Source of the DNA: an uncultured Dehalococcoidales bacterium
GTDB taxonomy: Bacteria; Chloroflexota; Dehalococcoidia; Dehalococcoidales; BS750m-G39
Reading direction: 5' to 3'
Length of the DNA stretch: 49,494 bases
Assembly (NCBI GenBank): GCA_964652005.1
Contig: CAZYZL010000001.1
Location: forward strand, 1 to 49,494
This document shows positions 1 to 34,025 of this stretch, piece after piece (the stretch's first letter is position 1; each line of letters opens with the position of its first letter). The translations under genes and the position numbers were made by a program. A model generated the notes under the pieces. It saw only the letters and a program-made list of their open reading frames with translations. It made no database searches and had not been told where the DNA came from.

Positions 1-771
1 GTCAGCCTGACGGCACTGCTTGTCTTCTGCATATGCTGTCCTCCCGGTCCGCTAGACCGAAACACGTCAACCTTCAAATCGTCAGGCCCTATCTTGACAT
101 CGACATCGGCTTCGGCTTCAGGCAAGACCTCCACCAAGGCGAAGGAAGTATGCCGAGCATGGTCAGCGTCAAAAGGAGAGAGACGAACCAGCCGGTGGAC
201 GCCGTGCTCTGACTTCAGGTAGCCACAGGCATAATCGCCATTAACCCCGATAACCACGCTCTTTACCCCCGCCTCCTCGCCCGGTGAAATATCCAGTATC
301 TCAGCCTTATAACCACGCCGCTCAGCCCAGCGCAGGTACATTCTCATCAGCATCTGCGCCCAGTCCTGGGATTCTGTGCCGCCAGCCCCGGCATGGATAG
401 ACAGAATGGCATTTCTGGCATCATACTCACCGCTAAAGGCTGCCTCCAGTTCCAGCTCATCAAGGCGAGAGGCTAACTTGTCTACCTCGGACTGAATCTC
501 TGCTTCCAGCGAGCTGTCCCCCAGGGAGATTAATTCGGCAACCTCAGCCGCCCTTTTCTCCACCTCCCGCCACCGGTTGACTACCTTCTCCTGCTCAGCC
601 AACTGGCGCATAATATGTTGCGCCTTTTCCGGTTCCAACCAGAAGTCAGGCTGGGCTGACTGCTCCTCCAGTCTTGAAATCTCCTCTTCCCTGGCGGCAA
701 TGTCAAAGATGCACCATCGCCATAGAGATTCTAGCCTGTAAATCCTCTAATCTATCCCTTAACTCCTGCAT
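1..771 (-). CDS. prfB: Peptide chain release factor 2. The N-terminal ~256 codons are in the window and the 3' end runs off the window start. Requires a programmed +1 frameshift.
   Basis: Minus-strand translation from the ATG at 771 gives MQELRDRLEDLQARISMAMVHL, then an in-frame TGA. The +1 frame continues DIAAREEEISRLEEQSAQPDFW...HAGAGGTESQDWAQMLMRMY...FRSSGPGGQHMQKTSSAVRLT, which contains the GGQ motif. The gene is absent from the ORF track because of the frameshift and the edge truncation. Confidence 0.9.
702..715 (-). promoter_or_regulatory. RF2 autoregulatory +1 frameshift site (SD-like GGTG, 3-nt spacer, CTT TGA C)
   Basis: The reverse complement of 702-715 is GGTGCATCTTTGAC. CTT is codon 22 (708-706) and TGA is at 705-703, and the reading frame continues from GAC at 704-702. 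This matches the classic CUU UGA C slippery or stop context. Confidence 0.85.
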
Positions 772-802
772 TTATCCTCACCGTAATTCTTTGATTATTT
801 TC

Positions 803-940
803 TACCTCACCCCCTTTATCCCCCTCTCCTTTCAAAAGGAGAGGGGGAAGAGATTTTAGAGAGGGGGCTTCGCCCCCTCTCTTACTTTCACTCCCCCCTT
901 CCCTTATCAAGGGAAGGGGGACAGGGGGATGGGTTACTAA
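803..940 (-). repeat. Modular three-hairpin intergenic repeat, copy A
   Basis: H1 is CCCCCTCTCC-TTTCAAAA-GGAGAGGGGG (820-847). H2 is AGAGAGGGGGC-TTC-GCCCCCTCTCT (858-882). H3 is CCCCCTTCCCTT-ATC-AAGGGAAGGGGG (894-920). The tail is ACAGGGGGATGGGTTACTAA (921-940). It is near-identical to copies at 1741-1939, 6171-6400 and, inverted, 15244-15373. Confidence 0.9.
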
Positions 941-957
941 ACAATATCTAAATTCTT

Positions 958-1680
958 CTAAACAAAAAGCCTCCCTTGATAATCTACTTCCTGGGTTAGA
1001 GCGCCCTCTTCTCTCCCCAGATTCCCCCCGGCTGCCAGATGAGCAAGGCGGGCAGGCTCGGGCAGGCGATAGCCGCGGCACAATTTTACCACCCAGTACA
1101 TTGCCGTCTCTAGGTCAATTTTATGACCGATAGAAACATAAACCGGCTTACTCCCCGGCTTGGTTCGCACTGCAGCACCGATAACCTCGCCCCTATCCAT
1201 TATCTCAGCACAGCTACCAAGCTCGTCTCCCGGCTCCTCATGACTACCACAGAGCAGCGATTTGGCACAGCCAATTGTTGGCGTATCTAGAAGGAGTCCG
1301 AGGTGAGAGGCAAGCCCGAAGCGGCGGGGGTGAGCAATCCCCTGCCCATCAACCAGGATAAGGTCAGGGGTAAGGCTGAGTCTCTGGCAAGCCGCCAAGG
1401 TTAACGGTGCCTCCCTAAAGGATAAAAGACCAGGGACATAAGGAAAATCAACCTTGCCACTTACCACCTTTGTCTCCACCAATCTAAGCTCAGGATAGTT
1501 TAACACCACTATTGCCCCACTTGCCACCCCTTGCTCTCTATTTACTGATATATCCACGCCAGCGATAAGCCTGGGATTAGCCACCTCATTACGCCGAGAA
1601 ACCTGTGATGCCAGCCTAAGCTGCAGGTCTAACGCCTGAGCCGGGCTGACCTGCCAACTATGTAAGTTACTTACCTTCAT
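958..1680 (-). CDS. nfi: Endonuclease V (deoxyinosine 3' endonuclease)
   Basis: Family-typical stretches are GVDISV...FPYVPGLLSFREAP...LILVDGQGIAHPRRFGLASHLGLLLDTPTIGCAKS...PVYVSIGHKI. I moved the start to MKVSNL (ATG at 1680), because the 29 upstream codons of the tracked ORF read through repeat copy B. There is no clear SD. Confidence 0.85.
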   Translation of the reverse strand: MKVSNLHSWQVSPAQALDLQLRLASQVSRRNEVANPRLIAGVDISVNREQGVASGAIVVLNYPELRLVETKVVSGKVDFPYVPGLLSFREAPLTLAACQRLSLTPDLILVDGQGIAHPRRFGLASHLGLLLDTPTIGCAKSLLCGSHEEPGDELGSCAEIMDRGEVIGAAVRTKPGSKPVYVSIGHKIDLETAMYWVVKLCRGYRLPEPARLAHLAAGGNLGREEGALTQEVDYQGRLFV

Positions 1681-1740
1681 AACCCGATTATAGCGACTAG
1701 ATAACCCGATGACAACTATAATTCCGAGGTTGTTTTTCAA

Positions 1741-1939
1741 CCTCACTCCCCTTGTCCCCCTCTCCACTCTTTGGAGAGGGGGAAGAGAAGAAAGAGGGAC
1801 TGACGCCCCTCTTAGACACTCTTAATCAAGTAAGCTCTCACCGAAGAAGGAGGGACTTTAGAGAGGGGCTTCGCCCCTCTCTTACTCTACTCCCCCTTCC
1901 CTTTGTAAGGGAAGGGGGTCAGGGGGATGGGTTACTAAA
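1741..1939 (-). repeat. Modular three-hairpin intergenic repeat, copy B, with an extra ~70-nt insert between H1 and H2
   Basis: H1 is CCCCCTCTCC...GGAGAGGGGG (1756-1782). H2 is AGAGAGGGGC-TTC-GCCCCTCTCT (1860-1882). H3 is CCCCCTTCCCTT...AAGGGAAGGGGG (1892-1918). The tail is TCAGGGGGATGGGTTACTAA. Confidence 0.9.
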
Positions 1940-1959
1940 TAATCTCATAATTCCAGCCA

Positions 1960-1988
1960 TTGACAGTCAGACAATTATAGCGCATAAT
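1960..1988 (+). promoter_or_regulatory. Putative sigma70-type promoter for rpsP-KH-rimM
   Basis: TTGACA (1960-1965), a 17-nt spacer, then CATAAT (1983-1988), about 25 nt upstream of the rpsP TTG start. Confidence 0.5.
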
Positions 1989-2012
1989 AACCTATAAAGA
2001 AGGCCGATAAAA

Positions 2013-2417
2013 TTGGTAAAGATTAGATTACGCCGGGTAGGAGCCAAAACAAAGCCGAGTTATCGACTAGTAGTAGCCGATGCCCGAGCCCCCCGCAACG
2101 GGGCATTTATTACCATTATTGGTCACTATAATCCCCTAACTGACCCGGAAACGATAGTTGTAGATGGAGAAAAAGCGCTAACCTGGCTCAGGCAAGGGGC
2201 TCAACCAACAACCACCGCCGCTAGATTACTAGCTAAAGCCGGGATTATCGAAGAGTCTGAGGCAAGGAAAGATAAAATGAAAGCCGGCATTACCGAAAAA
2301 CCCAAAGCAAGTAAGAAGAAAACCAAGGCTGGTGTCACCGAAAAACCCAAAGCAAGCAAGGAGAAACCCGAAGCCAGCACCACTGAAGAACCCAAAGCAA
2401 GCAAGGAGAAAACATGA
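2013..2417 (+). CDS. rpsP: 30S ribosomal protein S16 with a Lys/Glu-rich repetitive C-terminal extension
   Basis: [30 protein letters not shown]...IGHYNP is canonical S16. The start is TTG. The tail is [45 protein letters not shown]. Confidence 0.9.
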
Positions 2418-2641
2418 AAGAAATAGTTGAATACATCGCCAAATCAATTGTCAATTCACCTGATGATGTGGTAGTCACTGAGGAGACCGACGAACAGGGC
2501 ATAATGCTCAAGTTGCAGGTCGCTGATGAAGATAAGGGGCGGGTTATTGGCAAGCAGGGTCGCGTCGCTCAAGCCATGCGCACCTTGCTCAGGGTGAGAG
2601 CAGCTAAAGAAGGCACCAGGGTTACTCTCGAAATCCTGTGA
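2414..2641 (+). CDS. KH-domain RNA-binding protein (UPF0109 / YlqC-like)
   Basis: The GKQGR motif appears in [16 protein letters not shown]. The protein is 75 aa and occupies the conserved position between rpsP and rimM. Its ATG overlaps the rpsP stop (ATGA). Confidence 0.85.
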
Positions 2642-2660
2642 CCATCGCTCAGTAACAGGA

Positions 2661-3176
2661 ATGATATCGCCAGGGCTGGAATTTATCACTATTGGCCAAG
2701 TCCTAGCCCCGTGGGGTATTAAGGGTAAGGTAAGGGTTGAGGTAGTAACCGATTTCCCCCAGCGCTTCGCCCCCAGTTCTCAGATTTACATTAACCGAAA
2801 GCCGATGACTATTGCCAGCACCCAGTGGCATAAAGGCAAAGCAATAGTCAAGCTAGACACCATTGATAGCATTGAACAGGCGGAAAAGCTCCAGGGGCAA
2901 ACGATAGAAATACACCATAGCCAGCTTCAGCCTCTGCCTGAAGGGCAATACTACCACTTTCAACTCATCGGGCTGGAGGTATGGACAACTCAGGGGGAAC
3001 TACTGGGAAAAATTAGCCAAATTCTAACCGCAGAGAGCAATGATAACTACGCAGTCCACGGAGCCAAAGGAGAGATTCTTATTCCAGCCATTGAGGATAT
3101 AGTAAAGTCGGTTGACCTTGATAACGGGCGGATAACTATTGAAGCTATAGATGGGCTACTGAGCTTAAACCGTTAG
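2661..3176 (+). CDS. rimM: 16S rRNA processing protein RimM
   Basis: [28 protein letters not shown] is a RimM N-terminal signature, followed by a PRC-barrel-like C-terminus. Synteny with rpsP supports the call. Confidence 0.85.
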
Positions 3177-3604
3177 CCAGGTTGGCCCCCCGGCTTCCTT
3201 TTTCGCCTCCTCTCCACCACCTTAAGGCGGGCAAGGGAGCGTCGCAGTGCTGCCTCAGCCTGGGCTGCATTCACCTCGGGGGGATGTTGTCTAAGTAGCT
3301 CCTCAGCCCGGCGCTTTGCCGCCTCAGCTCGAGCTATATCAATCTCCTCAGCCCTCTCAGCAGCATCAGCCAGAACTATAATCCGGTCAGGACGCACCTC
3401 AAGAAAGCCCCCGGAAATGGCTAGGGAGAACTCCTCCCCACCCTTCCTCGCCCGCAGCTCACCGGGCTGTAACATGGTCATCAGAGGGGCATGATGGGGC
3501 AGGATTCCCAGCTGACCTTCAACCCCGGGAGCAACCACCACATCCACATCCTCGGAGAAAACTACCCCCTCCGCAGTAACAATATCAAGCCTTGTTGTAG
3601 CCAT
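3173..3604 (-). CDS. atpC: F1 ATP synthase subunit epsilon
   Basis: The N-terminus [40 protein letters not shown] is family-typical, and the gene lies downstream of atpD. Confidence 0.9.
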
Positions 3605-3615
3605 TGACCCTAAAC

Positions 3616-5293
<1,678 letters not shown>

Positions 5294-5311
5294 GGGTAAA
5301 ACCTCCTTCGT

Positions 5312-6169
5312 TTAAGCTAGAGCCGCGGCTCCGCCGGTAATGTCCAAGAGTTCTTTGGTTATTGACTCCTGCCGTGCTTTATTATACATCAGAGTCAGCT
5401 CTTCAATAAGCTCGCTAGCATTATCAGTGGCATTGCGCATTGCCACCTTCCTGGCTGACTGCTCACTGGCAATGGATTCCAGAATAGCATGATATACCTG
5501 CATCTCAACAAATCGGGGTAGAAGCCCACCCAATACTGACGTCGGTTCTGGCTCATATATATAGTCTACATTCTGCGCCTGGGGTATCTCTGCCGGTTCA
5601 ACAGGAAGTATCTGCTGTATAATTGGTCTCTGCACCATAGTGGAAATAAACTGAGCATAAACCAGATAGACCAAGTCAATAATCCCGTTGGTGTAGTCGT
5701 CAATAATGATACGGGATATAGGCAGCGTATCCAGCAAGCTAGGTCGGTCGCCAAGCCCGGTAAAATCAGCCCGAATGTCCCGACCATATCGCCTCATAAA
5801 ATCCCTCCCCTTGCGACCGACGGTAATAAGGGTAACCGATACACTCTGCTCCAGGATAAAGCTGGCTGTCCTGCGGTTCAGGCTGGCATTAAGCCCACCA
5901 CACAGCCCACGGTCAGGGGTGATATGGACTATGGCGATTTTGGTCACCGGTCGGCGCTGCAACAGCGGATGCAGTGCTTCACCTTCCCTGGGCAAAGCCG
6001 CCAGGTCAGCCAGCACCTGGCGAATCTTCTCAGAATAAGGTCGCCCCGCCAGGCTACGCTCCTGAGCCCGCCTCATCTTTGAGGTGGCAATCATCTCCAT
6101 CGCCCGGGTAATCTTGGCGGTAGATTGAATGCCCCGTATTCGGCGGCGAATCAGGCGAATATTAGCCAA
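5312..6169 (-). CDS. atpG: F1 ATP synthase subunit gamma
   Basis: The N-terminus ANIRLIRRRIRGIQSTAKITRAMEMIATSKMRRAQ and the C-terminus ARQESITKELLDITGGAAAL are canonical. The start is TTG. Confidence 0.95.
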   Translation of the reverse strand: MANIRLIRRRIRGIQSTAKITRAMEMIATSKMRRAQERSLAGRPYSEKIRQVLADLAALPREGEALHPLLQRRPVTKIAIVHITPDRGLCGGLNASLNRRTASFILEQSVSVTLITVGRKGRDFMRRYGRDIRADFTGLGDRPSLLDTLPISRIIIDDYTNGIIDLVYLVYAQFISTMVQRPIIQQILPVEPAEIPQAQNVDYIYEPEPTSVLGGLLPRFVEMQVYHAILESIASEQSARKVAMRNATDNASELIEELTLMYNKARQESITKELLDITGGAAALA

Positions 6170-6170
6170 T

Positions 6171-6400
6171 CTCTGACCTCACCCCCTTTATCCCCTCTCC
6201 TTGGCAAGGAGAGGGGAAACTGGTTTTGGGAAGAAGGGTTTCACCCTTCTTAAACTACCCGTATTTAGTTTTGCCTTGCTCCTTAACTATTCCCTCCCAT
6301 CGGGAGAGTTTTAGAGAGGCGAAGCCTCTCTAACTATTCCCCCCTTCCCCTTGGCAAGGGGAAGGGGATAGGGTTACTATTAAACAGGGGCGAAGCCCCT
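6171..6400 (-). repeat. Modular three-hairpin intergenic repeat, copy C, inside the atp operon between atpA and atpG
   Basis: H1 is CCCCTCTCCTT-GGC-AAGGAGAGGGG (6192-6216). H2 is TAGAGAGGC-GAA-GCCTCTCTA (6312-6332). H3 is CCCCTTCCCCTT-GGC-AAGGGGAAGGGG (6341-6367). The tail is ATAGGGTTACTAT. Extra small hairpins are GAAGAAGGGTTTCACCCTTCTT and AGGGGCGAAGCCCCT. Confidence 0.9.
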
Positions 6401-6422
6401 TCAATCTTCCCCACCACCCTAA

Positions 6423-7943
6423 TTAGTAGGTCATCCCCTGCTTGAACTCTAAAATTGCCGCTTTTAATTTCTCCTCAGTCTCAGCACTAATCTCTTTTTT
6501 GCTAGCAATGGACTGACCTATCTCAGGGTGATTTGCCTCCATAGACCGGTGGAAGTTAGCCTCAAAGGCAGTGACCTTATCCATCGGTATATCATCAAGA
6601 TAACCGTTGATAGCCACATACAAAATCATAACCTGCTTTTCCAACGGCATCGGGACATACTGAGGTTGCTTTAAGATTTCAGTGATTCGCTGACCACGCT
6701 CAAGCTGGGCTCTGGTTGACTTATCCAGCTCACTAGTGCCAAATTGAGCAAAGGCAGCCAGCTCCCGGTATTGAGCCAGCTCCAGTCTCAGTCTGCCTGC
6801 CACCTGTTTCATCGCCTTGGTCTGGGCGGCGCTGCCAACCCGAGATACTGATAAACCTACGTTCAGCGCTGGCCTGATACCGGCATTAAATAGGTCGGTT
6901 TCTAGATAAATCTGACCATCAGTAATAGAGATAACATTAGTCGGGATATAGGCAGCTACATCACCAGCCTGCGTTTCGATGATAGGCAGAGCACTAAGAG
7001 AGCCACCGCCATATTCAGGGGCATACTTAGCTGCCCGCTCAAGCAAGCGACTGTGGAGATAGAAAACATCACCGGGGTAAGCCTCTCGGCCTGGGGGGCG
7101 GCGCAGCAACAGGGAAAGCTGCCGATACGCCCAGCCATGCTTGGAAAGGTCGTCGTAGACAACCAGAGCATCCCTTCCCCCCTCCATGAACTCCTCACCC
7201 ATAGCGCAGCCGGCATAAGGAGCAAGATATTGCATGGCAACCGAGTCGGAGGCATTAGCCACTACCACTATGGTATGCTCCATAGCCCCATGAGCCTCTA
7301 GAGTGGCGACTACTCGTGCCACCTTGGAGGTTTTCTGACCAATGGCGACATAGATACAGGTTAAGTCGCCACCCTTTTGGTTGATAATGGTATCAAGGGC
7401 AATAGCCGTCTTGCCCGTTGACCGGTCACCGATAATAAGCTCTCTCTGCCCCCGACCTATAGGAATCATACTATCTATAGCCTTGATACCGGTTTGCACC
7501 GGGGTATCCACCGGCTTACGTAAGGTAACATTGGGAGCCACCCGCTCCACGGGTCGGGTCTTATCAGTCTTTATCAGACCCTTGCCATCCAGGGGTTGAC
7601 CGAGGGAATCAACTACCCTGCCGATAAGCGCTTCGCCCACTGGCACCTCGGCAATCCGCCCAGTGCACCGCACCTCGTCCCCTTCCTTAACGCTGGTGTA
7701 ATCGCCGAGGACAACAGCGGCAACACTATCCTCTTCCAGGTTCAGGGTAATCCCCATGACCTCATGGGGAAATTGAAGTAGCTCATTATACTCGGCGGCG
7801 GCTAGACCGTGAATCCGGGCAATACCATCGCCAATCTCAATCACGGTGCCAACATCGACCATGGTCAACGCTGCACCAAACTGCTCAATCTGCTGCTTGA
7901 TAACAGAAACAATGTCTTGCCCTCTGGTTGTCACTTGAGCCAC
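6423..7943 (-). CDS. atpA: F1 ATP synthase subunit alpha
   Basis: Walker [10 protein letters not shown] is present. The protein is 506 aa and alpha-typical throughout. Confidence 0.97.
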
Positions 7944-7959
7944 CTCCTTACCAGCCTAT

Positions 7960-8502
7960 TCATCTTACCTCCCTACTAGCCAGCGTCTTCTTTAGCACCA
8001 TCAATTTACTATGGGTACTACCGTCCACCAGCTTGCCACCAATCCTAGCTATAATCCCACCTACCACATTGGGGTCCACCTCTGGCTTGACCACCACCTT
8101 CTTGCCGACCACAGCCCCGAGAAGCTGCTCCAACCTCTGCCTATCTTTACCATCAAGCTCAATGGCGGTAGTAACCTCAGCCTGCTCTATACCGCGATAA
8201 CTATCCAATAAACGCTGATACTCATCAGCAATATCACCCACCAGGCTCAATCTGCCTCTGGTCACTAATAAATAAACCAGATTCAATGCTACAGGGTTTA
8301 TATCACCCAGCCACCCAGATAAAAGTCTTGCCTTATCCTCAAAATGAATCTTGGGGTTTTCTAGCAGAGCAATAAATGGAGCATCCTCAGCCAGAGTGGC
8401 AATCTTTCTCAGGTCAGACTGCCATCTATCTAACTCATTTCTCTCCAGGGCAATGTTGAACACTGCCTGGGAATAGCGCCTGGCGTAAATCCTTCTTGCC
8501 AC
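7960..8502 (-). CDS. atpH: F1 ATP synthase subunit delta (OSCP)
   Basis: A 180-aa protein in the operon position between atpF and atpA, with an OSCP-like C-terminus IIARIGGKLVDGSTHSKL. Confidence 0.85.
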   Translation of the reverse strand: MARRIYARRYSQAVFNIALERNELDRWQSDLRKIATLAEDAPFIALLENPKIHFEDKARLLSGWLGDINPVALNLVYLLVTRGRLSLVGDIADEYQRLLDSYRGIEQAEVTTAIELDGKDRQRLEQLLGAVVGKKVVVKPEVDPNVVGGIIARIGGKLVDGSTHSKLMVLKKTLASREVR

Positions 8503-8507
8503 GATAG

Positions 8508-9017
8508 CTAACCCTTCTTCAGGGTTTTGCTCTCCTCCAGCACCTTATCAATAATCTGGCGGTGAGCTTTCTTATCCAAAGACCGGTCAATCACCTTCTC
8601 CGCCGCCATTATAGTTATGTCGGCAAACTCCTTACGCAACTCATCAATAGCTTCGTCTCGCTCCCTCTGAATCTCAGCCTGTGCCCTAGCAATGAGGGCT
8701 TCGGCTTCCTGCTTGGCTTGCTGCTGTGCCCCTTGTCTAATCTCCTCCCCGGTTCGCAGCGCCCGGGCTATCGCTTCCTGCCCCTCTTTAGCCGCAGCCT
8801 CAATCCGTTTGGCCGCCTCCTCCTCAGCCCTTCCCGCCTGCTGCTTAATATATTCTGTCCGCTCCATGCTTTCCTTAATCTTCCTGGAGCGCTCATCCAG
8901 CATCCTCATAATTGGCTTATAGGCAACGAGATACAAAAGCCCAAAAAGAACGATAAAATTTATAATCTGTGCCAGCAGCACTGGCATATTTATACCGAGA
9001 TTTGCCAGCCCTCCCAT
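8508..9017 (-). CDS. atpF: Fo ATP synthase subunit b
   Basis: One N-terminal TM segment (VLLAQIINFIVLFGLLYLVAY) followed by a long charged helix. I prefer the ATG at 9017 (SD GGGGG 5 nt upstream) over the tracked GTG at 9023. Confidence 0.85.
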   Translation of the reverse strand: MGGLANLGINMPVLLAQIINFIVLFGLLYLVAYKPIMRMLDERSRKIKESMERTEYIKQQAGRAEEEAAKRIEAAAKEGQEAIARALRTGEEIRQGAQQQAKQEAEALIARAQAEIQRERDEAIDELRKEFADITIMAAEKVIDRSLDKKAHRQIIDKVLEESKTLKKG

Positions 9018-9040
9018 TTTCACCCCCTGACCTGAATTGA

Positions 9041-9160
9041 CTAAGGCATACTAATGCCAAAAAGCATCGCCGCAACTACTGACCCAATAAGAAATGTTGC
9101 GCCCAAAATTACTATTGAAAGGAAAATCGCTATAGATAGAGGTATACCATCTTGTCCCAT
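9041..9160 (-). CDS. Candidate 39-aa single-TM membrane peptide between atpE and atpF, below the ORF-track size cutoff
   Basis: The reverse complement reads ATG GGA CAA ... CCT TAG, giving MGQDGIPLSIAIFLSIVILGATFLIGSVVAAMLFGISMP. An SD AAGGAGAG lies 7 nt upstream of the ATG. The ORF fills the atpE-atpF gap almost exactly (atpE stop at 9180, atpF start at 9017). Confidence 0.5.
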   Translation of the reverse strand: MGQDGIPLSIAIFLSIVILGATFLIGSVVAAMLFGISMP

Positions 9161-9179
9161 GATTTCTCTCCTTTTATCC

Positions 9180-9413
9180 CTACTGTACAATCATAGCCAG
9201 AATTATGGCTATAATCAGGGCATAAATGCCGATAGCCTCAGCAAAGGCAGTAACCAGAATCATGTTGGTCATTATCGGACCACTTGCCTCAGGGTTGCGG
9301 GCTAACCCCTGTAACGCCGAATAGCCGATAAGTCCGATAGCCAAAGCTGGTCCCAATAACCCCAGACTACCTACCAATCCTACCGCCAACAATTTCATTA
9401 CTTCTGGTTCCAT
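9180..9413 (-). CDS. atpE: Fo ATP synthase subunit c
   Basis: A 77-aa hairpin proteolipid with the GLARNPE loop and a carboxylate in AFAEAIGIYAL. Confidence 0.95.
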   Translation of the reverse strand: MEPEVMKLLAVGLVGSLGLLGPALAIGLIGYSALQGLARNPEASGPIMTNMILVTAFAEAIGIYALIIAIILAMIVQ

Positions 9414-9439
9414 TTTTCTCCCCCCTTTCTTAGTTTATG

Positions 9440-10399
9440 TTAAGTTGCCTCGGCTCCATGATGAGCGACAGCAACGGTAAGGAATACCAGAGTTAAGCCA
9501 CCAAAGATGAGAGCCTGAACAAAGCCAACCAGTAACTCCAGCCCGTAAAAGGGCAAGGCAAATATCCAGGGAATGAGGAATATCGATATCAAAAGCAATA
9601 TCTCGCCAGCGGTCATATTGCCAAAAAGACGGAAGGTAAAGCTAACAATACGCACCAGTTCGCTCAGCGCTTCTAAAAAACCAACAAAAATATTGATGAC
9701 CCCGGTGATTAACCCGCCCAAGCCAGCCCGAAGCCTGCCTCTAAATATCTGACCCACACTCCGGAAAAACGGACCAACATTAATGAACTTACCCAGGTAA
9801 CGAATGCCCCCTCCCCGTCTTAAGCCAAAGAACTCAACGAAGACAAAGGACATAAGAGCCAGCGCCAGAGGCATATTAATATCGGTGTTGGCACCCCGCA
9901 GTAGATGCATCTCGCCCTCGGCTGTTTCCACGGTTATTGAACCAAACCCGGGAAGTAAGCTCAGCCAGGCATTAAAGGCAACAAAGAGAAAAATAGTCGC
10001 CACCACCGGGAAGAAGCGGCGCCCATTTTCCTCTCCGGCAACACTCTGGCAGAAGTTATATAGCCAGCCAAGGAAAGCTTCAAACAGGCTTTGCAATCTG
10101 GAGGGGATGAGCTTCATCCGACGGCTAATGGCGTAGGAAAATCCCACCAGGAAGATAATAGTAAGCCAGGCACCGATAATGCTATTAGTAATGGGAAAGC
10201 CAAACAGATGGAAGACCACCTCAGGAGGAAGCTTGGGGGCGGGGCGGGGGCCAGCCAGCCAGGCAGGCAACCCCAAATCACCAAGCATGCTCTTACCCAA
10301 GGGACCAATAACAAAACCGGCTACAAAGAGAACAACAAAGACAAGCAAAACCCCAATTATGATAGGAAAGGAACAACCCAGGCAGCCCCGCTTAGGCAC
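9440..10399 (-). CDS. atpB: Fo ATP synthase subunit a
   Basis: A polytopic membrane protein with the conserved Arg region SFTFRLFGNMTAGE. The start is GTG and overlaps the upstream stop. Confidence 0.92.
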   Translation of the reverse strand: MPKRGCLGCSFPIIIGVLLVFVVLFVAGFVIGPLGKSMLGDLGLPAWLAGPRPAPKLPPEVVFHLFGFPITNSIIGAWLTIIFLVGFSYAISRRMKLIPSRLQSLFEAFLGWLYNFCQSVAGEENGRRFFPVVATIFLFVAFNAWLSLLPGFGSITVETAEGEMHLLRGANTDINMPLALALMSFVFVEFFGLRRGGGIRYLGKFINVGPFFRSVGQIFRGRLRAGLGGLITGVINIFVGFLEALSELVRIVSFTFRLFGNMTAGEILLLISIFLIPWIFALPFYGLELLVGFVQALIFGGLTLVFLTVAVAHHGAEAT

Positions 10400-10623
10400 T
10401 AGCTATTCTCCTTGTCTTGCTTGCTACGCAGCAGAGGTAAAAGCATCTGATAAACGCCATAGAAAGCAACAATTATGCCTAATAGTAAACCAACAATCAC
10501 TAAAATAGGCTCAGTATTAAACTTGCTATCAGCCCAGAGTCCGGCAAATACACCCAAGGCAATTGAACCGCCGATGAAAAAACCGACACCAGTTAACCTT
10601 AAAGCTGCAGCCAACCTGCTCAT
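10399..10623 (-). CDS. AtpZ/AtpI-like small membrane protein (ATPase_gene1 family), first gene of the atp operon
   Basis: A 74-aa protein with two TM segments. The pattern GGSIALGVFAGLWADSKFNTEPILVIVGLLLGI is typical of AtpZ-type proteins. Confidence 0.7.
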   Translation of the reverse strand: MSRLAAALRLTGVGFFIGGSIALGVFAGLWADSKFNTEPILVIVGLLLGIIVAFYGVYQMLLPLLRSKQDKENS

Positions 10624-10632
10624 GCCGTCAGC

Positions 10633-10661
10633 AGCATATCAAATCTACTCCCTATGGTCAA
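10633..10661 (-). promoter_or_regulatory. Putative sigma70-type promoter of the atp operon
   Basis: On the minus strand: TTGACC (10661-10656), a 17-nt spacer, then TATGCT (10638-10633). Only 9 nt separate the -10 from the AtpZ-like ATG, and no SD is present. Confidence 0.4.
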
Positions 10662-10678
10662 GCTCGCTTTTGGTCACT

Positions 10679-10718
10679 AAAGAGCCCTAGACCTTTCAGC
10701 TCTAGGGCTCTTTATTCT
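10679..10718 (-). terminator. Strong hairpin, probably the terminator of the upstream Zn-ribbon gene, insulating the atp promoter
   Basis: AAAGAGCCCTAGA (10679-10691), a 9-nt loop, then TCTAGGGCTCTTT (10701-10713). This is a 13-bp perfect stem with flanking T/A runs on both strands. Confidence 0.6.
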
Positions 10719-10734
10719 CAAACCCTCAGACTAG

Positions 10735-11064
10735 CTATTTCCGACTAAAAAACCGAGAAAAGTCCCCATCAAAGGTCTCTAAGAAATTATGCATATCCAA
10801 CACCTCATCCGCCGTCAGCCTACCCGCATTCTTAAATTTATTTACTTCCGCCCCAGTAAGGTCAGTAATAACCTCAGGCGCCCTTCCTTCCTTAATTACT
10901 GCTGCCACTAAATACTGGGTATGGCAAGTTGAACAAAACACCTTCAAAAACCACAAATCTTCCTGACGACCCAGAACACTAACATTAGCTGACTCATAAC
11001 ACTGCCCGCAAACACCACACTTCATTAAGGTCATCACTCGCTTAATAACATTTTCCTTCATCAA
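10735..11064 (-). CDS. Hypothetical Zn-ribbon-like protein
   Basis: A 109-aa ORF with CGVCGQC...CSTCH, that is CxxC(x2)C ... CxxC spacing. I recognise no family. Confidence 0.5.
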   Translation of the reverse strand: MMKENVIKRVMTLMKCGVCGQCYESANVSVLGRQEDLWFLKVFCSTCHTQYLVAAVIKEGRAPEVITDLTGAEVNKFKNAGRLTADEVLDMHNFLETFDGDFSRFFSRK

Positions 11065-11102
11065 TGGGCTCCTGAATCTGCCTAAGGTGGGGAAAGTGGG
11101 GC

Positions 11103-11651
11103 TCAGGATTTACGCTTATCAAAGTCTTCTAAATCAAGGGTGTTGATGAAATCATAGAAAGCGGACATCTTTTTTAGCTCTTCCTCACTGACCTTCCCAC
11201 TGCCAGCGGCACCGGTTTCACTCTCTTGAGGAATAGGTTTGCCCGTCTCCTTGTCTAATAAGATGCCGGCTTTATCTAAAACTGCCTCATCGGCATAGAT
11301 AGGCACGCCTACCCTTACCGCCAGCGCCAGGGCATCGCTGGGACGAGAGTCGACTTCCATTTGCTTCCCATCTACATTAAGGATAATCTTGGCATAAAAG
11401 GTATCGTTTTTGAGGTCACTGACAATGATAGAGTTAATAGTCGCCCCCAGGGCATCAATGACCGAGCGCAGTAAGTCGTGAGTTAATGGTCTTGGCACGG
11501 TAACATCCTGAAGTTTCACTGCTATGGCATCTGCTTCCGCAGGACCAATCCAGATAGGTAGATAGCGCTCTGCCGTCTTTTCTTTCAGAATCACCACCCG
11601 TTGATAGTTCATCAGACTGACCCTGATACTATCAATAGTCATCTCTATCAT
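11103..11651 (-). CDS. Bifunctional nuclease (BFN / DUF151) family protein
   Basis: LPIWIGPAEADAIA...RPLTHDLL...DSRPSDALALAVRVGVPIY matches the BFN-domain pattern. I set the start at MIEMTID (ATG at 11651), which has GGAGG 7 nt upstream. Confidence 0.75.
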   Translation of the reverse strand: MIEMTIDSIRVSLMNYQRVVILKEKTAERYLPIWIGPAEADAIAVKLQDVTVPRPLTHDLLRSVIDALGATINSIIVSDLKNDTFYAKIILNVDGKQMEVDSRPSDALALAVRVGVPIYADEAVLDKAGILLDKETGKPIPQESETGAAGSGKVSEEELKKMSAFYDFINTLDLEDFDKRKS

Positions 11652-11743
11652 AGTCACACCTCCTCTATTTCTCGCCAGCATTTCAATTTTACTCTACATA
11701 TCCCCTACTGTCAACCTTAAAATTGCGGGGTTTACTTAAGCAT

Positions 11744-11771
11744 TTAGACAAACGCCTCATTATGGTATAAT
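11744..11771 (+). promoter_or_regulatory. Putative extended -10 promoter for ppsA
   Basis: TTAGAC (11744-11749), a 16-nt spacer, then TGgTATAAT (TG at 11763-64, TATAAT at 11766-11771). Confidence 0.45.
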
Positions 11772-11882
11772 AAACTATAACTACCCAGTAGAAGCTTCAA
11801 TCAGCCAAGCTAAGAATAGTGAACAAATGTTTCATTTAGTCCCCTAGCCCTGATTAAAGGATAACTGCAAGGAGGTATAGGT

Positions 11883-14138
11883 ATGCGCCAGGGTCAAAAG
11901 GACATCGTCTGGTTTAATGAGGTAACCAAGAAGGATGTACCCACTGTCGGCGGCAAGGGAGCCAATCTCGGCGAAATGACTAATGCTAACATACCTGTCC
12001 CCCCAGGCTTCATTGTAACCGCAGACGCCTATTTTGACTTCCTAGAAAAGTCAAAACTTACCGATAAAATTCACCACCGGCTACAGCCACTAGACCCCGG
12101 CGATAGCAAACAGCTTCAACAGGTAGCTGCCCAGATTAAGCAGCTAATTCTAGACACTGCTATGCCACTGAAGTTAGCCAAAGAGATTGAACAGGCCTAC
12201 ATCAAGATGGGCAGAGGTTTGGTTGCTGTGCGCTCCTCGGCTACTGCTGAAGACCTGCCCGAGGCTTCCTTTGCCGGTCAGCAACGCACCTTCCTCAATG
12301 TGCAGGGAGAAAAGGAGGTGGTGGCCGCCGTCCAGGGGTGCTGGGCATCCCTCTTTGAACCACGGGCTATCTTCTACAGGCACCAGCAGGGTTTCGACCA
12401 CTTCAAGGTTGGTATCGCTGTACCGGTACAAAAAATGGTTCAATCTCAAGCCTCAGGGGTAATGTTTACTATAGAACCGGTAACCAGTGACAACAGCAAG
12501 ATTGTTATTGAGGCTGTCTATGGGCTGGGTGAGGCTATCGTCTCGGGAGAGGTAACCCCCGACCTGTACATCATAGATAAAGAGGGGTTGAAAATTAGCA
12601 CTAAGAAAGTAGCTAAACAAGAGACGCAGCTAATTAGGAATCCGGCCGCCGTTCAGGGAGAGGCTAATATTTGGGTGCCAATCGCACCAGCAGAGCAAAA
12701 CCAGCCAAAGTTAACCGATGACGACATAATCAGCCTAGCCAAGCTGGGAAAACAGCTTGAGGACTGGTATCAATTCCCCCAGGATATTGAGTGGGCAAAA
12801 GATGAAAAGAAAATCTTTATCGTTCAAACTCGCCCGGTAACCACCATCAAGGAGGTGACTGAGGTTATACCTGAAATCAAAGCCCCGGTGCTTCTCACCG
12901 GAGCTCCCGCCAGTCCAGGCATGGCTTCAGGACCGGTGAAAATAGTCCCCGAGCCGTCACAAATAGACAAGGTAAAAACGGGCAATATCCTGGTCGCCGA
13001 AATGACCACCCCCGACTTTGTGCCGGCGATGAAACGAGCCGCAGCTATCGTGACCGACCGCGGCGGTAGAACTGCCCATGCCGCTATTGTCAGTCGAGAG
13101 CTGGGTATTCCCTGCGTTGTCGGCACTGAGCAGGCAACAACTACCCTGACCGATGGGCAAATAATCACTGTAGACGGCTCGCGGGGTAAGGTGTATCAGG
13201 GCAAAATAGCCAAGGAAAAAATGACTGTAGTTACCAATATTCTCAGGGAAGAGATTAAGACCAAGACCAAGGTCTATGTAAATCTGGCTCAACCTGAGCT
13301 GGCTGAAGCCGTGGCTGCCCGTAATGTTGATGGCGTCGGCTTACTCCGCGCCGAGTTCATGATTGCCCAGATTGGTGAGCACCCCCGGTATATGATTAGC
13401 CAGAACCGGGGACGAGAATTTGTGGACAAACTGGCAAAAGGCATTGAAACCTTCGCCACGGCGTTTAACCCCCGCCCGGTAGTTTACCGAACTACCGATT
13501 TCAAGACCAATGAATATAGAGAGCTCACCGGTGGGCAGGAATACGAGGAGATTGAGGAGAACCCCATGCTCGGCTACAGGGGAGCTTCACGCTATATCCA
13601 CGACCTTGACATGTTTAAACTAGAACTAGAAGCCATAAAAAGGGTGAGACGGAAGTACAAAAATCTATGGGTGATGATTCCCTTCGTCAGGACGGTGGAG
13701 GAACTGGCTAGAACCAAGGAAATTTTGGAATCTGAGGGACTAAAGCGCTCTGATGACTTCAAGCTGTGGATGATGGTTGAGGTACCGTCTAACATCTTCC
13801 TTATGGAGAAGTTCCTTGAAGTCGGCATTGATGGCATATCCATCGGCTCAAATGACCTGACCCAGCTTATCCTGGGAATTGACCGGGATAGTGGGAAGCT
13901 AGCTAAGGAATTTGATGAGCGAAACGAGGCGGTACTTGTCGCTCTAGAGAGGGCAATCAAGGTATCCAAGGCTATGGGTGTCACTTCCTCTATCTGCGGG
14001 CAGGCACCCTCCGTCTACCCCGAGCTTACTGAAAAGCTGGTAGAATGGGGTATTACTTCGGTTTCAGTAAGCCCGGATATGATTGGCACCACCAGAGAGA
14101 CAATCGCTAAGGCAGAAGCAAGATTACAAGGCAGATGA
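11883..14138 (+). CDS. ppsA: Phosphoenolpyruvate synthase (pyruvate, water dikinase)
   Basis: An ATP-grasp N-terminal domain, the phosphohistidine motif GGRTAHAAIVSRELGIPCVVG, and a PEP-utilising C-terminal domain. The SD is AGGAGG. Confidence 0.9.
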   Translation: MRQGQKDIVWFNEVTKKDVPTVGGKGANLGEMTNANIPVPPGFIVTADAYFDFLEKSKLTDKIHHRLQPLDPGDSKQLQQVAAQIKQLILDTAMPLKLAKEIEQAYIKMGRGLVAVRSSATAEDLPEASFAGQQRTFLNVQGEKEVVAAVQGCWASLFEPRAIFYRHQQGFDHFKVGIAVPVQKMVQSQASGVMFTIEPVTSDNSKIVIEAVYGLGEAIVSGEVTPDLYIIDKEGLKISTKKVAKQETQLIRNPAAVQGEANIWVPIAPAEQNQPKLTDDDIISLAKLGKQLEDWYQFPQDIEWAKDEKKIFIVQTRPVTTIKEVTEVIPEIKAPVLLTGAPASPGMASGPVKIVPEPSQIDKVKTGNILVAEMTTPDFVPAMKRAAAIVTDRGGRTAHAAIVSRELGIPCVVGTEQATTTLTDGQIITVDGSRGKVYQGKIAKEKMTVVTNILREEIKTKTKVYVNLAQPELAEAVAARNVDGVGLLRAEFMIAQIGEHPRYMISQNRGREFVDKLAKGIETFATAFNPRPVVYRTTDFKTNEYRELTGGQEYEEIEENPMLGYRGASRYIHDLDMFKLELEAIKRVRRKYKNLWVMIPFVRTVEELARTKEILESEGLKRSDDFKLWMMVEVPSNIFLMEKFLEVGIDGISIGSNDLTQLILGIDRDSGKLAKEFDERNEAVLVALERAIKVSKAMGVTSSICGQAPSVYPELTEKLVEWGITSVSVSPDMIGTTRETIAKAEARLQGR

Positions 14139-15187
14139 TCAGTCAGCTTAATATCCGCCAACTAGCTGAAGAAAGGGAGGAGAGTCTTTCCCCTTATGCC
14201 GTGAAAAGCAAGCTATCGCGGGGCAGGCTGAAATACGAGCCACCCTGTCCGGTGCGCACCGCCTTTCAGCATGACCGTGACCGCATTATCCACTGTAAGG
14301 CGTTTCGCCGCCTCAAGCATAAGACACAGGTCTTCATTGCCCCCTTAGGTGACCACTACGTAACCCGACTCACCCATACCCTGGAGGTTTCTCAAATCGC
14401 CCGCACTATTGCTCGTGCCCTAAACCTCAATGAGGATTTAACCGAGGCAATCGCCTTAGGCCATGACTTGGGACACACCCCCTTCGGTCATGTTGGCGAG
14501 GAGGTTCTCGACGAGCTGTACCAGCCGGGCTTCAGACATAATGAGCAAAGCCTGCGCGTGGTCGACCTTCTGGAGAACAATGGTCACGGGCTCAACCTTA
14601 CCTGGGAGGTGAGGGACGGCATCCTGAACCACTCCAAGACCAGGGTAGATATCTGGGGGGAGGGCTGGGGAAAGGTAAATACCCTGGAGGGGGAGGTGGT
14701 TAAGATTTCAGATTCCGTGGCCTACATCAACCATGATATTGATGATGCCGTAAGAGCCAGCATGATTACCGAGGGCGATTTACCCCTCTCAGCCATTACC
14801 AAATTAGGTAATTCCCGCTCCCTCCGCATCAATACCATGGTCTGCGATATTATTGAGCGCTCATGGGCAGTAAGGGGTGATAGCCAGGGAAATCCCACTA
14901 TAACTATGAGCCCCGAGATTCTGGAGGCAACCAATACCCTGCGTGAATTTCTCTTTGAGCGGGTTTACAATGTCCGCTCAGCACAGGAGGAATCAGAACG
15001 GGCGAGGCAGGTGGTTCGGGCATTATATAAATACTTCAATGAGCATAAAGATAAACTGCCAGCAGAGTATAGTTTTTACAGCGATGAGCCAGAGCGAAGG
15101 GTGGTTGACTACATCGCCGGCATGACCGACCAGTATGCCCTGAGGCTGGCTGAAGAACTGTCTTTGACTAAAGGCAAGGCTAAATAA
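14135..15187 (+). CDS. dgt: dGTP triphosphohydrolase-like HD-domain protein
   Basis: FQHDRDRIIHCKAFRRLKHKTQVF...THTLEVSQI...GHDLGHTPFGH is the Dgt-like HD signature. The ATGA overlaps the ppsA stop. Confidence 0.85.
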   Translation: MISQLNIRQLAEEREESLSPYAVKSKLSRGRLKYEPPCPVRTAFQHDRDRIIHCKAFRRLKHKTQVFIAPLGDHYVTRLTHTLEVSQIARTIARALNLNEDLTEAIALGHDLGHTPFGHVGEEVLDELYQPGFRHNEQSLRVVDLLENNGHGLNLTWEVRDGILNHSKTRVDIWGEGWGKVNTLEGEVVKISDSVAYINHDIDDAVRASMITEGDLPLSAITKLGNSRSLRINTMVCDIIERSWAVRGDSQGNPTITMSPEILEATNTLREFLFERVYNVRSAQEESERARQVVRALYKYFNEHKDKLPAEYSFYSDEPERRVVDYIAGMTDQYALRLAEELSLTKGKAK

Positions 15188-15219
15188 CAAATAATTAAGG
15201 GAAGATTGAAGGGGAGTTA

Positions 15220-15373
15220 AAGAGGGGCGAAGCCTCTCTTATATAACCCATCCCCCTGACCCCCTTCCCTTAGTAAGGGAAGGGGGAGTAAAAGTAAGAG
15301 AGGGGGCAAAGCCCCCTCTCTAAAACCTCTTCTCCCTCTCTTTTGAAGGAGAGGGGGATAAAAGGGGAGAGGT
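15220..15373 (+). repeat. Modular three-hairpin intergenic repeat, copy D, inverted on the + strand relative to A-C
   Basis: The tail TAACCCATCCCCCTGA starts at 15244. H3 is CCCCCTTCCCTT-AGT-AAGGGAAGGGGG (15260-15286). H2 is AGAGAGGGGGC-AAA-GCCCCCTCTCT (15297-15321). A degenerate H1 is CCCTCTC-TTTTGAAG-GAGAGGG (15334-15355). An extra hairpin AGAGGGGCGAAGCCTCTCT lies at 15221-15239. Confidence 0.9.
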
Positions 15374-15390
15374 AGTAAAATATAATTAAA

Positions 15391-17172
15391 ATGGGCATTA
15401 TAGATGAGGTAAAACAGAGAGTAGACATCGTTGATGTGGTTAGCCAGTATGCCTCTTTAACCAAAGCCGGGCGAACCTTCAGGGCGCTATGCCCGTTCCA
15501 CAGTGAAAAGCACCCCTCCTTCTTCGTCTATCCTGAGCAGCAGAGCTGGCATTGCTTTGGCGCCTGCAGTACTGGCGGCGATGTCTTTTCCTTCATCATG
15601 AAAAAGCAGGGAATTGACTTTGGCGAAGCGCTGAGACTTCTTGCCCAAAGGGCAGGGGTTGCCATCCCGTCAAGATTTGAACCTAGGGCTGAAAGCGAGG
15701 AGAAGCAAAGGTTATATCAGGTTAACCAGGCAGCAGCCCAATATTTCCACAATCTGCTCCTAAGCTCCCCGGCTGGAGAAAAGGCAAGAAGTTATGTCAC
15801 AGGAAGAGGTTTCTCACTGAAAACCGCTGCCGACTTCCAGCTAGGCTTCAGCCCCGATAGCTGGGATGCCCTTAAGCAACACCTCATGGATAGAGGCTAT
15901 AGCCAGGGCGAACTGCTGACCGCCGGTTTAATAATAGAGGCGGAGGCAGGAAAAAGCCACGACCGGTTCCGCAACCGATTAATGTTCCCCATACATGACG
16001 TTAGAGGACGGATTACTGGATTTGGGGCTAGGGCGCTTGATGACTCACTACCCAAATACATCAATTCGCCGCAGACGCCAGTCTTTGATAAAAGTAGCAG
16101 CCTTTATGGCATAAACCTTGCCACCGAGGCTATCAGGCAACAGAATCTAGCAGTGATTGTCGAGGGCTACATGGACGTTATCACTGCCCACCAGAATGGT
16201 TTCCACAATGTAGTTGCCTCAATGGGAACCTCAGTCACCGAGAAACAGGTCAGCATTCTAAAGAGGCTAACCAAAAACATGGCCTTAGCCCTTGATGCTG
16301 ACACTGCTGGAGATGAAGCCACCCTACGGGCGGTGGATTATGAAAATACCCTTGATGCTGAGGTAAAGGTTATCATCCTGCCCAGAGGTCAAGACCCCGA
16401 TGATGTCATTAAACAAGATGCCAAAAGCTGGCAAAAACTGGTGGTAGAGGCTTTACCTATAGTTGATTATGCTTTCAATAGGGTTAGCTCTGAGCTTGAC
16501 CTGACTACAGCCAAGGGCAAGTCTTCAGCCGTGGATAAGCTTCTCCCCATCATCGCCGAGGTAAAAGACATCACACGCCAGGGATATTATTTAGACAGAC
16601 TGGCTCAATTGGTAAAACAGAGCCAGCACAGTATAGAGGCGGCTCTAAGTAGAATTAAACCTGACCGCCGGGTTAGGGAGTCAAAGCCGGAAGCGATGGC
16701 ACACGCCTTGCAGCCCCTCCGGTCCAGTCCTGTGGAGGAATATTGCCTGGCGCTTCTGCTGCACTACCCGGAGCTTAAACATAGGCAGGAGGGGCTTTTG
16801 CCGGAATACTTTGAAAATAGCGAAAACCGTGAAATCTTTATCGCTTGGCAACGGAGTGATAAAATAGAATTGCTCAAACAGGAGCTTGCCTCCGAAATTC
16901 ACGAGCACCTTGATTCTCTAGTAACCAGGAACTTATTAAGCACTGATATAGGGCAAAAATATGCTGAGTGCGCTCTCAGGCTACGGGAGAAATTCCTCCG
17001 CAGTCTGGCAACCAAGATAGAGGTGGTATTAACCGTAGAAGCTCAGTCAGGAGGCAAGACGGCTGAGCTGGCTAAACTTAAGGAGCTAGGGATAGAGGTC
17101 AATAGTCAGTTGGGCGAGGTTTTGGCTCAAAAAAGCCAGAGCCGGTTAGAGCAAAGGGGGATGAGGAAATGA
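15391..17172 (+). CDS. dnaG: DNA primase
   Basis: A zinc ribbon [25 protein letters not shown] and the TOPRIM motif EGYMDV. Confidence 0.95.
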
Positions 17173-33817: not shown

Positions 33818-33835
33818 TTTTACTAGGGTTGTTGA

Positions 33836-34025
33836 CTTACGGCAGGAGATGCCCTATATAGGGAGCCGAAGGGGCAAGAGACAGAGTGTTAGCTCGAGGT
33901 CTTGAAACTCTCAGGCAAAAGGACTACCGTAAGTAAAAACCTCTGGAGAGATCTCTGTATGAGGTCGCCGAAGGGGTAAGTCCGCAAATATGCAGCGGGC
34001 AATCTCTCAGGTGAAGGGACAGGGG
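33836..34025 (+). promoter_or_regulatory. Tandem glycine riboswitch (two aptamers)
   Basis: Aptamer 1 has P1 CTTACGG (33836-42) pairing with CCGTAAG (33927-33), plus GGAGA...GCCGAAGGGGCAA...CTCTCAGGCAAAAGGAC. Aptamer 2 has CTCTGGAGAG...CGCCGAAGGGGTAA...TCTCTCAGGTGAAGGGACAGGGG. It lies upstream of gcvT. Confidence 0.9.

Follow-up and report, generated by a model that had tools for sequence, protein, structure and literature searches.

The closest described relatives in architecture are several families of short, intergenic bacterial repeats. Correia elements of Neisseria (NEMIS/CREE) are approximately 100–156 bp long, carry 26-bp inverted repeats, and occur as hundreds of gene-less intergenic copies; they are co-transcribed with their neighbors, their RNA folds via the inverted repeats, and single copies alter the expression of neighboring genes (PMC3049150, PMC3733652). 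BOX elements, found in Streptococcus pneumoniae and S. suis, are built from boxA and boxC end modules that form inverted repeats around variable internal modules that fold independently; they affect downstream expression in an orientation-dependent manner, and an insertion sequence has been suggested to mobilize them in trans (PMC3049150). ERIC/IRU of enterobacteria is a MITE, or miniature inverted-repeat transposable element, of approximately 127 bp that resides in transcribed spacers and has an orientation-dependent effect on mRNA (PMC3049150), and REP/BIME sequences form mosaic arrays of short GC-rich spacer palindromes with reported roles in attenuation and mRNA stability (PMC3733652). Here we describe a family of three-hairpin repeats represented by four copies (A to D) in a 49,494-nt stretch of DNA from an uncultured Dehalococcoidales bacterium (contig CAZYZL010000001.1, positions 1–49,494; hereafter the window). 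We conclude, with a probability of about 0.8, that all four belong to a non-autonomous transposon of the MITE-like type, which makes an 8-bp target duplication and fills gaps between genes. This interpretation is drawn because the family combines inverted-repeat termini, a target duplication of 8 bp, and orthologous sites that are filled in one genome and empty in another.

Target-site duplications, for which an earlier reading of this DNA (the original prediction) had advised a search, were found with a length of 8 bp. The duplication is perfect at copy B, where ATAATTCC occurs at 1718–1725 and again at 1947–1954, abutting both inverted repeats. In the metagenome-assembled genome (MAG) that contains the window (G000; 1.0 Mb, 126 contigs, 50% G+C, with the window as contig 1), direct repeats of at least 7 nt lay beside both ends of 13 of 43 full copies, compared to 2.1 expected from flank shuffling. 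Abutting repeats of at least 8 nt were present in 21 of the 91 full copies from three data sets, where 0.46 were expected, with a modal length of 8; the duplicated target sequence varies between copies. On contig C74 of G000, the 8-mer CTCTCCTT flanks an element and is single in the corresponding empty site of G001, a relative of a different genus (four-fold-site identity 0.66). The whole genome of G001 was compared with that of G000 through 325 syntenic gene pairs. Most of the 325 syntenic spacers were element-free (265), while 21 were occupied in both genomes, 17 in G000 only, and 22 in G001 only; occupancy therefore differed in 39 of the 60 occupied spacers. Among relatives, the spacer between atpA and atpG, where copy C resides, is 3–24 nt long in eight genomes and contains 94–467 nt of repeat modules in seven. 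Terminal inverted repeats of about 15–30 bp, a duplication of fixed length, small and dispersed copies that lack genes, and presence/absence polymorphism are hallmarks of the bacterial MITEs, and all are present in this family; a partner insertion sequence with the same inverted repeats is usual for MITEs but not obligatory.

The canonical unit is approximately 155 nt long and comprises 26-nt imperfect terminal inverted repeats (GAGATTGTTTAKYAACCTMWCCCCCT), designated L and R, around three polypurine/polypyrimidine hairpins, designated H1 to H3. The L inverted repeat reads GAGATTGTTTATTAACCTCACCCCCT and the R repeat, as its reverse complement, GAGATTGTTTAGCAACCTATCCCCCT; the two agree at about 21 of 26 positions. 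Alignment of oriented copies showed that conservation runs 14 nt beyond each 12-nt core and then drops sharply at both boundaries. At up to six mismatches, the 26-nt terminus occurs 146 times in G000 and is absent from the reversed-sequence control. These counts rely on typed 12-mer and 26-mer matching, which replaced iterated nhmmer models of the ends; those converged on a hairpin-plus-terminus model that was generic and did not keep L and R apart. Full copies range from 70 to 360 nt with a mode of approximately 155 nt, leaving no room for a gene, and the longer copies (up to approximately 360 nt) contain extra hairpin modules nested between the three hairpins. Some of these extra modules are small palindromes just inside the terminus, flanked by short duplications of their own; examples are TTACCCCACGAAATCAGGATTTCGCGGGGA between duplicated CCCCTTAATC, and AGCACCCAGAAAAATC..GATTTTTCTGGGAACCCGCC. 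Nested palindromes were seen in G000 on C5 (~11216), C43 (~113), C94 (~4183), and C42 (~91), and also on C19, C61, C79, C92, C108, C109, and C125, and they hint at a second layer made up of tiny mobile hairpins. On C27 of the same genome (6330–6884), an R-type and an L-type end lie 555 nt apart around a small membrane-protein-like open reading frame (ORF) of approximately 95 aa; this arrangement represents either two partial elements or one element with a passenger.

Both strands of the unit fold as a four-way junction whose arms are H1 to H3 and whose closing stem is made by the inverted repeats. The canonical fold has a minimum free energy of −99 or −101 kcal/mol (z ~−15), and the RNAalifold consensus is the same four-way junction, with 44 pairs of which 7 show compensatory changes. 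The loop of H2-type hairpins, which in the window lie at 858–882, 1860–1882, and 15297–15321, is variable: in G000 it reads TTC in 60 cases and the reverse complement GAA in 60, with TTT/AAA loops and T–A in place of C–G closing pairs also found. This flip-flop-like inversion of the loop takes place inside elements of fixed overall polarity.

All four window loci carry the same modules in the order originally described, namely head ACCTCACCCCCTTTAT, H1 CCCCCTCTCC..GGAGAGGGGG, H2 AGAGAGGGGGC..GCCCCCTCTCT, H3 CCCCCTTCCCTT..AAGGGAAGGGGG, and tail CAGGGGGATGGGTTACTAA. The loci had been correctly recognized but drawn too short; they extend over 792–949 (copy A), 1726–1946 (copy B), 6170–6419 (copy C), and 15220–15387 (copy D). 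It was likewise confirmed that copies A to C run from L to R on the plus strand and that copy D is inverted, and that on the transcribed strand all four read from tail to head and end before a start codon. Pfam searches corroborated the genes that the copies had been said to precede, except that copy B, which sits in a divergent spacer, precedes rpsP as well as nfi. The confirmed flanking genes encode an RF2-type release factor (3–638, minus strand), endonuclease V (958–1680, minus strand), ATP synthase gamma (5312–6169, minus strand), ATP synthase alpha (6423–7943, minus strand), and DnaG (15391–17172, plus strand), together with an HD phosphohydrolase.

Copy A (plus strand) is a canonical three-hairpin unit that aligns with 22 other canonical copies and separates the stop of nfi from the start of prfB, two minus-strand genes. 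It is composed of the L repeat (~792–815), H1 (820–848), H2 (858–882), H3 (894–920), and the R repeat (923–949); its fold, a four-way junction, has an energy of −89 to −91 kcal/mol (z ~−13). The locus is empty in the relatives G005 and G009. A 7-nt direct repeat, AATTCTT, flanks the copy at 785–791 on the left and 951–957 on the right, and is probably a decayed target-site duplication. Copy B (plus strand, 221 nt) occupies the spacer between nfi (minus strand) and rpsP (plus strand, Ribosomal_S16); between its L repeat GAGGTTGTTTTTCAACCTCACTCCCCT (1726–1752) and R repeat AGGGGGATGGGTTACTAAATAATCTC (1921–1946) are H1, two extra hairpin modules, H2, and H3. At this locus, G005 and G009 contain different elements in the opposite orientation. 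Two ORFs cross these copies, at 752–1081 (minus strand, 109 aa) and 1752–1997 (plus strand, 81 aa); both are probably spurious frames arising from the repeats that may end up in gene-caller annotations.

Copy C (plus strand, 250 nt) is a mosaic of five or six hairpins that occupies the entire atpA–atpG spacer. Its L core GACCTCACCCCCT is at 6175–6187 and its R core at ~6365–6378, followed by an extra GGGGCGAAGCCCC hairpin. The mRNA strand of the copy ends in GGGGGTGAGGTCAGAGA; next comes, at 6169, the TTG with which atpG starts, and the N-terminus of the encoded protein begins there. The counterpart of copy C in G001 is an orthologous mosaic with 93% identity, compared to 68% at the four-fold sites of atpG. 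In the same spacer, six relatives (G011, G006, G013, G016, G007, and G012; loci L132, L135, L137, L138, L140, and L142) possess a conserved small Cys-rich ORF of approximately 110 aa whose product starts M(E/D)KMIAYCG..C..C, which replaces the repeat modules or stands beside them. Copy D (minus strand) is the inverted copy, and its inverted-repeat scan, alignment with canonical copies, and fold all fit the unit. It begins with an extra hairpin (15220–15240) and continues through the R core AACCCATCCCCCT (15245–15257), H3 (15260–15286), H2 (15297–15321), H1 (15331–15358), and the L end, which reads in reverse complement AAGGGGAGAGGTAGTAAAATATAATT (15362–15387); the ATG of dnaG lies just past this end at 15391. 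Copy A and the reverse complement of copy D, judged by eye to be roughly 90% identical, measured 93% over aligned columns and 78% when gaps were counted. Elsewhere in the window, a glycine riboswitch aptamer (RF00504) was detected at 33833–33936 on the plus strand, scoring 58.5 bits where the gathering threshold is 32.

BLASTN searches with the four window copies detected approximately 160 family loci in G000, or roughly one per 6 kb. All are intergenic and many sit at contig ends; together they make up 1.6% of the genome and approximately 11% of its non-coding DNA. The same searches found no further copy at 15.4–49.5 kb of the window, in line with the statement that copies are confined to the first 16 kb. 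Given some 160 loci genome-wide, the lack of copies between 16 and 49 kb, and hence the cluster at the start of the window, is a local fluctuation rather than a property of the family. Matches were present in 28 of 31 related Dehalococcoidales genomes, often 40–66 apiece, and an exact-pattern scan of species genomes yielded matches almost only in Dehalococcoidales and Dehalococcoidia MAGs. Across MAGs from different genera, the canonical unit retains approximately 82% column-wise identity. At least one odd label, the NCBI name ‘uncultured delta proteobacterium’ borne by locus L045 (CAVTZP010000003.1), is probably a naming problem; contig 3 of G010 belongs to the window’s own bacterial family. 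Organism names attached to MAGs of this kind are unreliable, and so are the apparent exact-pattern matches outside Chloroflexota.

The original prediction did not recognize the family, and we likewise found no published description of it, or of MITEs in Dehalococcoidia, in the literature. Annotating the family would be useful for Dehalococcoidales, in which it accounts for about a tenth of the non-coding DNA of 1–1.8-Mb genomes; its elements also fragment MAG assemblies at contig ends and produce spurious ORFs.

These streamlined genomes present a puzzle: they are nearly without transposase genes, yet their elements differ at orthologous sites, and something must move them. In our model, the element would be moved in trans by a DDE-type transposase making staggered 8-bp cuts, an enzyme that the assemblies examined do not encode and whose class is proposed only on the grounds of the element’s inverted repeats and 8-bp duplication. 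Several results weigh against the transposon interpretation. No terminus pair 0.5–4 kb apart enclosed a transposase in G000, G001, G010, or 114 fetched loci, and the pairs examined as potential partners contained housekeeping genes only (lexA-like, lepB, lspA, hisA, and acyl-CoA carboxylase). The Pfam families of the IS256, ISL3, IS66, and Y1 transposases were absent from all 30 genomes of the bacterial family, whereas the control genomes gave hits. DDE_Tnp_1 genes, present in 7 of 31 relatives and in neither G000 nor G001, were rejected as the partner, being IS1182-like with none of these ends beside them. A recognizable target duplication was seen in only about a quarter of full copies, and clean empty sites were few, with diverged flanks. 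Moreover, genes were called with our own ORF and codon-usage caller rather than a standard gene finder, and the MAGs are 71–97% complete, with insertion sequences often dropped. Within these incomplete assemblies, the element is an orphan MITE.

The IS1182-like DDE proteins themselves (L233 1054–2304 and its counterparts L234–L238 and L240) are encoded by single- or low-copy genes, are approximately 416–425 aa long, and lack recognizable inverted repeats; these genes may be domesticated or decayed. The outer inverted repeat of the present family may resemble the end of IS903, an element with a 9-bp duplication, and this is at most a lead.

The orientation shared by all four window copies reflects a genome-wide bias, though one of approximately 70% rather than the absolute rule that a 4/4 count might imply. 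In co-directional spacers, copies reading from R to L on the mRNA, as in the window, outnumbered those in the opposite orientation by 27:12 in G000, 34:11 in G001, and 26:16 among loci from other Dehalococcoidales genomes (pooled 87:39, p = 2e-5). Spacer type also mattered: elements occupied 18 of 65 divergent spacers in G000 and 28 of 101 in G001, compared to approximately 6% of co-directional and 5–7% of convergent spacers, an enrichment of about four-fold in divergent, promoter-bearing spacers.

The bias might originate in the transposition mechanism or the replication strand, such that a MITE inserts directionally. A bias set at insertion should be the same in younger and older insertions, and the ratios were indeed alike for lineage-specific (10:3) and shared (10:4) insertions. 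However, insertion in either direction is usual for DDE transposases whose 8-bp duplications fall at variable targets, and copies in divergent and convergent spacers showed no bias when scored relative to the majority gene strand of the region (13:10). Where local and regional gene direction were in conflict, elements followed the local genes by 6:3, though these numbers are small and include no closed genome with a mapped origin. Contig GC skew was unusable as a test of the replication strand, since skew tracks the coding strand (r = 0.83). On these small numbers, the bias seems to be tied to local transcription and not to the regional strand. The strongly directional insertion preference offered in the original prediction was not demonstrated, and we regard an origin of the bias at insertion as unlikely.

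Selection after insertion, acting through the mRNA, is our tentative explanation of the ~70:30 bias, and one to which we assign somewhat less than even odds. Since the element lands in short spacers, it would be co-transcribed with its neighbors, and either strand would then fold into a very stable four-way junction. In the favored orientation, the L end would place a ribosome-binding site before the downstream gene, of which atpG in the window would be an example; in the disfavored orientation, H2 plus the T-rich tail would resemble a weak terminator. An intrinsic terminator has a GC-rich stem with a U tract behind it; a simple terminator scan flagged H2 with CTCTTACTTT in copies A and D on the L-to-R strand only, with no more than 5–6 T in 10 nt of the tail.

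On its bottom strand, the L end reads AAAGGGGGTGAGGT, an almost perfect complement of the 16S rRNA 3′ end. Since neither G000 nor G001 yielded a 16S gene, the tail was taken from G010, a relative from the same bacterial family; this tail reads GGATCACCTCCTTTCT and its complement AAAGGAGGTGAT. The top strand of the L-end core, TCACCCCCTTTAT, agrees with TCACCTCCTTTCT of the 16S 3′ tail in 11 of 13 positions. Across G000 and G001, 28 of 145 sites with the L-end motif GGGG[GA]TGAGGT had the first in-frame start of the downstream gene 4–15 nt further on, compared to none of 40 sites with the R-end motif (p = 0.0008). The majority of these starts fall where the ortholog has its first residue, and several are conserved between the two genomes. 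Copy C is among the 28 sites, with GGGGGTGAGGTCAGAGA preceding the atpG TTG, and in relatives this L-end or R-end remnant likewise terminates the atpG leader, even where the spacer measures just 18 nt. In G010, an element copy is situated approximately 115 nt downstream of the 16S rRNA 3′ end (C3; L243 3120–3260).

Taken together, the Shine-Dalgarno mimic, the start adjacency, and the terminator flag restricted to the L-to-R strand suggest, at the level of sequence, that insertions in the disfavored orientation more often damage downstream gene expression. The mimic is accordingly a plausible, sequence-based candidate for the cause of the orientation bias. Set against selection through the mRNA are several observations: approximately 30% of copies are in the other orientation; adjacency of L ends to starts was not seen in the mixed 114-locus set (3 of 41 vs 3 of 46); the mimic is paired in the inverted-repeat closing stem of the folded RNA; in canonical copies it lies 14 nt or more away from the edge of the element; and copies common to both genera show no extra conservation relative to other spacers (0.84 vs 0.82). 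A more elaborate proposal is that insertions in one orientation serve as portable ribosome-binding sites, gated by pairing with the other terminus and co-opted for translation control (atpG and a dnaJ-like gene), with selection yielding the bias. We consider this doubtful; if true, a mobile element would be rewiring translation initiation, including in the ATP synthase operon, and there would be a concrete selective reason for orientation bias in a MITE. The Shine-Dalgarno-mimic terminus is the only unusual aspect of the family, which is otherwise ordinary selfish DNA.

The original prediction had also raised an RNA-level role, and the start-proximal end of the element does look relevant to RNA in that it carries the Shine-Dalgarno mimic; the element is nevertheless primarily a transposon, with no signal of stem selection and no extra conservation. 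It is improbable that the family is primarily a host-selected structured RNA (a 5′ stabilizer, processing site, or translational regulator) that is merely transposon-like, given that target-site duplications and filled/empty polymorphism show insertion. Orientation is biased relative to transcription, as befits such an RNA, but approximately 30% of copies are reversed. The folds are very stable, yet G:U and A:C stem mismatches are balanced on the mRNA-sense strand (37 vs 35), and the H2 loop is split evenly between TTC and GAA (60/60), with a polarity on mRNAs of 48 vs 31 that is not significant. The L end is in ribosome-binding-site position at approximately 19% of gene-facing L ends. In addition, the atp copy is 92–93% identical between two genera, compared to 68–71% at four-fold sites, and includes a segment unique in the genome. 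However, only this copy (0.92) stands out: shared copies as a whole (0.84, n = 5) are on a par with element-free spacers (0.82, n = 48). Searches of Rfam gave no gathering-level match on the repeats, and at E ≤ 5 returned sub-threshold matches only, to generic hairpin models (mostly microRNA precursors). Exaptation of single copies is possible.

Least credible of all, and in our judgment very improbable, is that these are REP/BIME-type palindromes moved by a RAYT (Y1, IS200/IS605-like) transposase via single-stranded hairpins: the mosaic of short GC-rich hairpins in variable number fits, and the excess of G:T over A:C mismatches on the element’s own plus strand (50 vs 22) could hint at a single-strand intermediate, although master-copy inheritance explains it equally well, but 26-nt inverted repeats and 8-bp duplications are not products of RAYT/IS200-type movement, Y1_Tnp (PF01797) was found in 6 control genomes and in none of the 30 genomes of the family, and inspection of 23 aligned copies revealed no conserved GTAG/CGTC tag by the hairpins (compare PMC3733652), whose flanks read TTTAT, AAGAG, TTAC, CACT, and TCAG.

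A MITE-like transposon thus remains our interpretation of the family, and its comparison with the known systems can be made accordingly. Of the two likenesses originally drawn, to BOX and to BIME, the former holds in that this is a modular, BOX-like dispersed family, whereas the defining features of REP/BIME are lacking. Like REP/BIME, the family forms mosaics of short GC-rich palindromes in spacers; REP units, however, have a GTAG/CGTC tag and associated Y1 transposases and are without long inverted repeats or target duplications, and the present family is the opposite in each respect. It shares with ERIC/IRU the character of a MITE that inserts in transcribed spacers, but belongs to another sequence family in other hosts, and any orientation effect here would be exerted through the Shine-Dalgarno mimic and the terminator-like hairpin. 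The likeness to BOX is one of build: both are modular, with conserved ends around a variable number of internal modules. In contrast to BOX, the internal modules here are several different hairpins plus nested palindromes instead of tandem boxB units, the family is G+C- and purine-rich rather than AT-rich, and no insertion sequence with matching ends was found.

With Correia elements, the family shares its size, its 26-nt inverted repeats, its lack of coding capacity, and its many intergenic copies, and in our model also co-transcription with adjacent genes and an RNA that folds by way of the inverted repeats. Correia elements duplicate TA, whereas the present family duplicates 8 bp of variable sequence; this distinction is made from the general features of Correia elements and not from a comparison of sequences. 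The family differs further in its interior, which consists of three or more independent homopurine/homopyrimidine hairpins, and in its hosts, which are Chloroflexota with genomes of 1–1.8 Mb.

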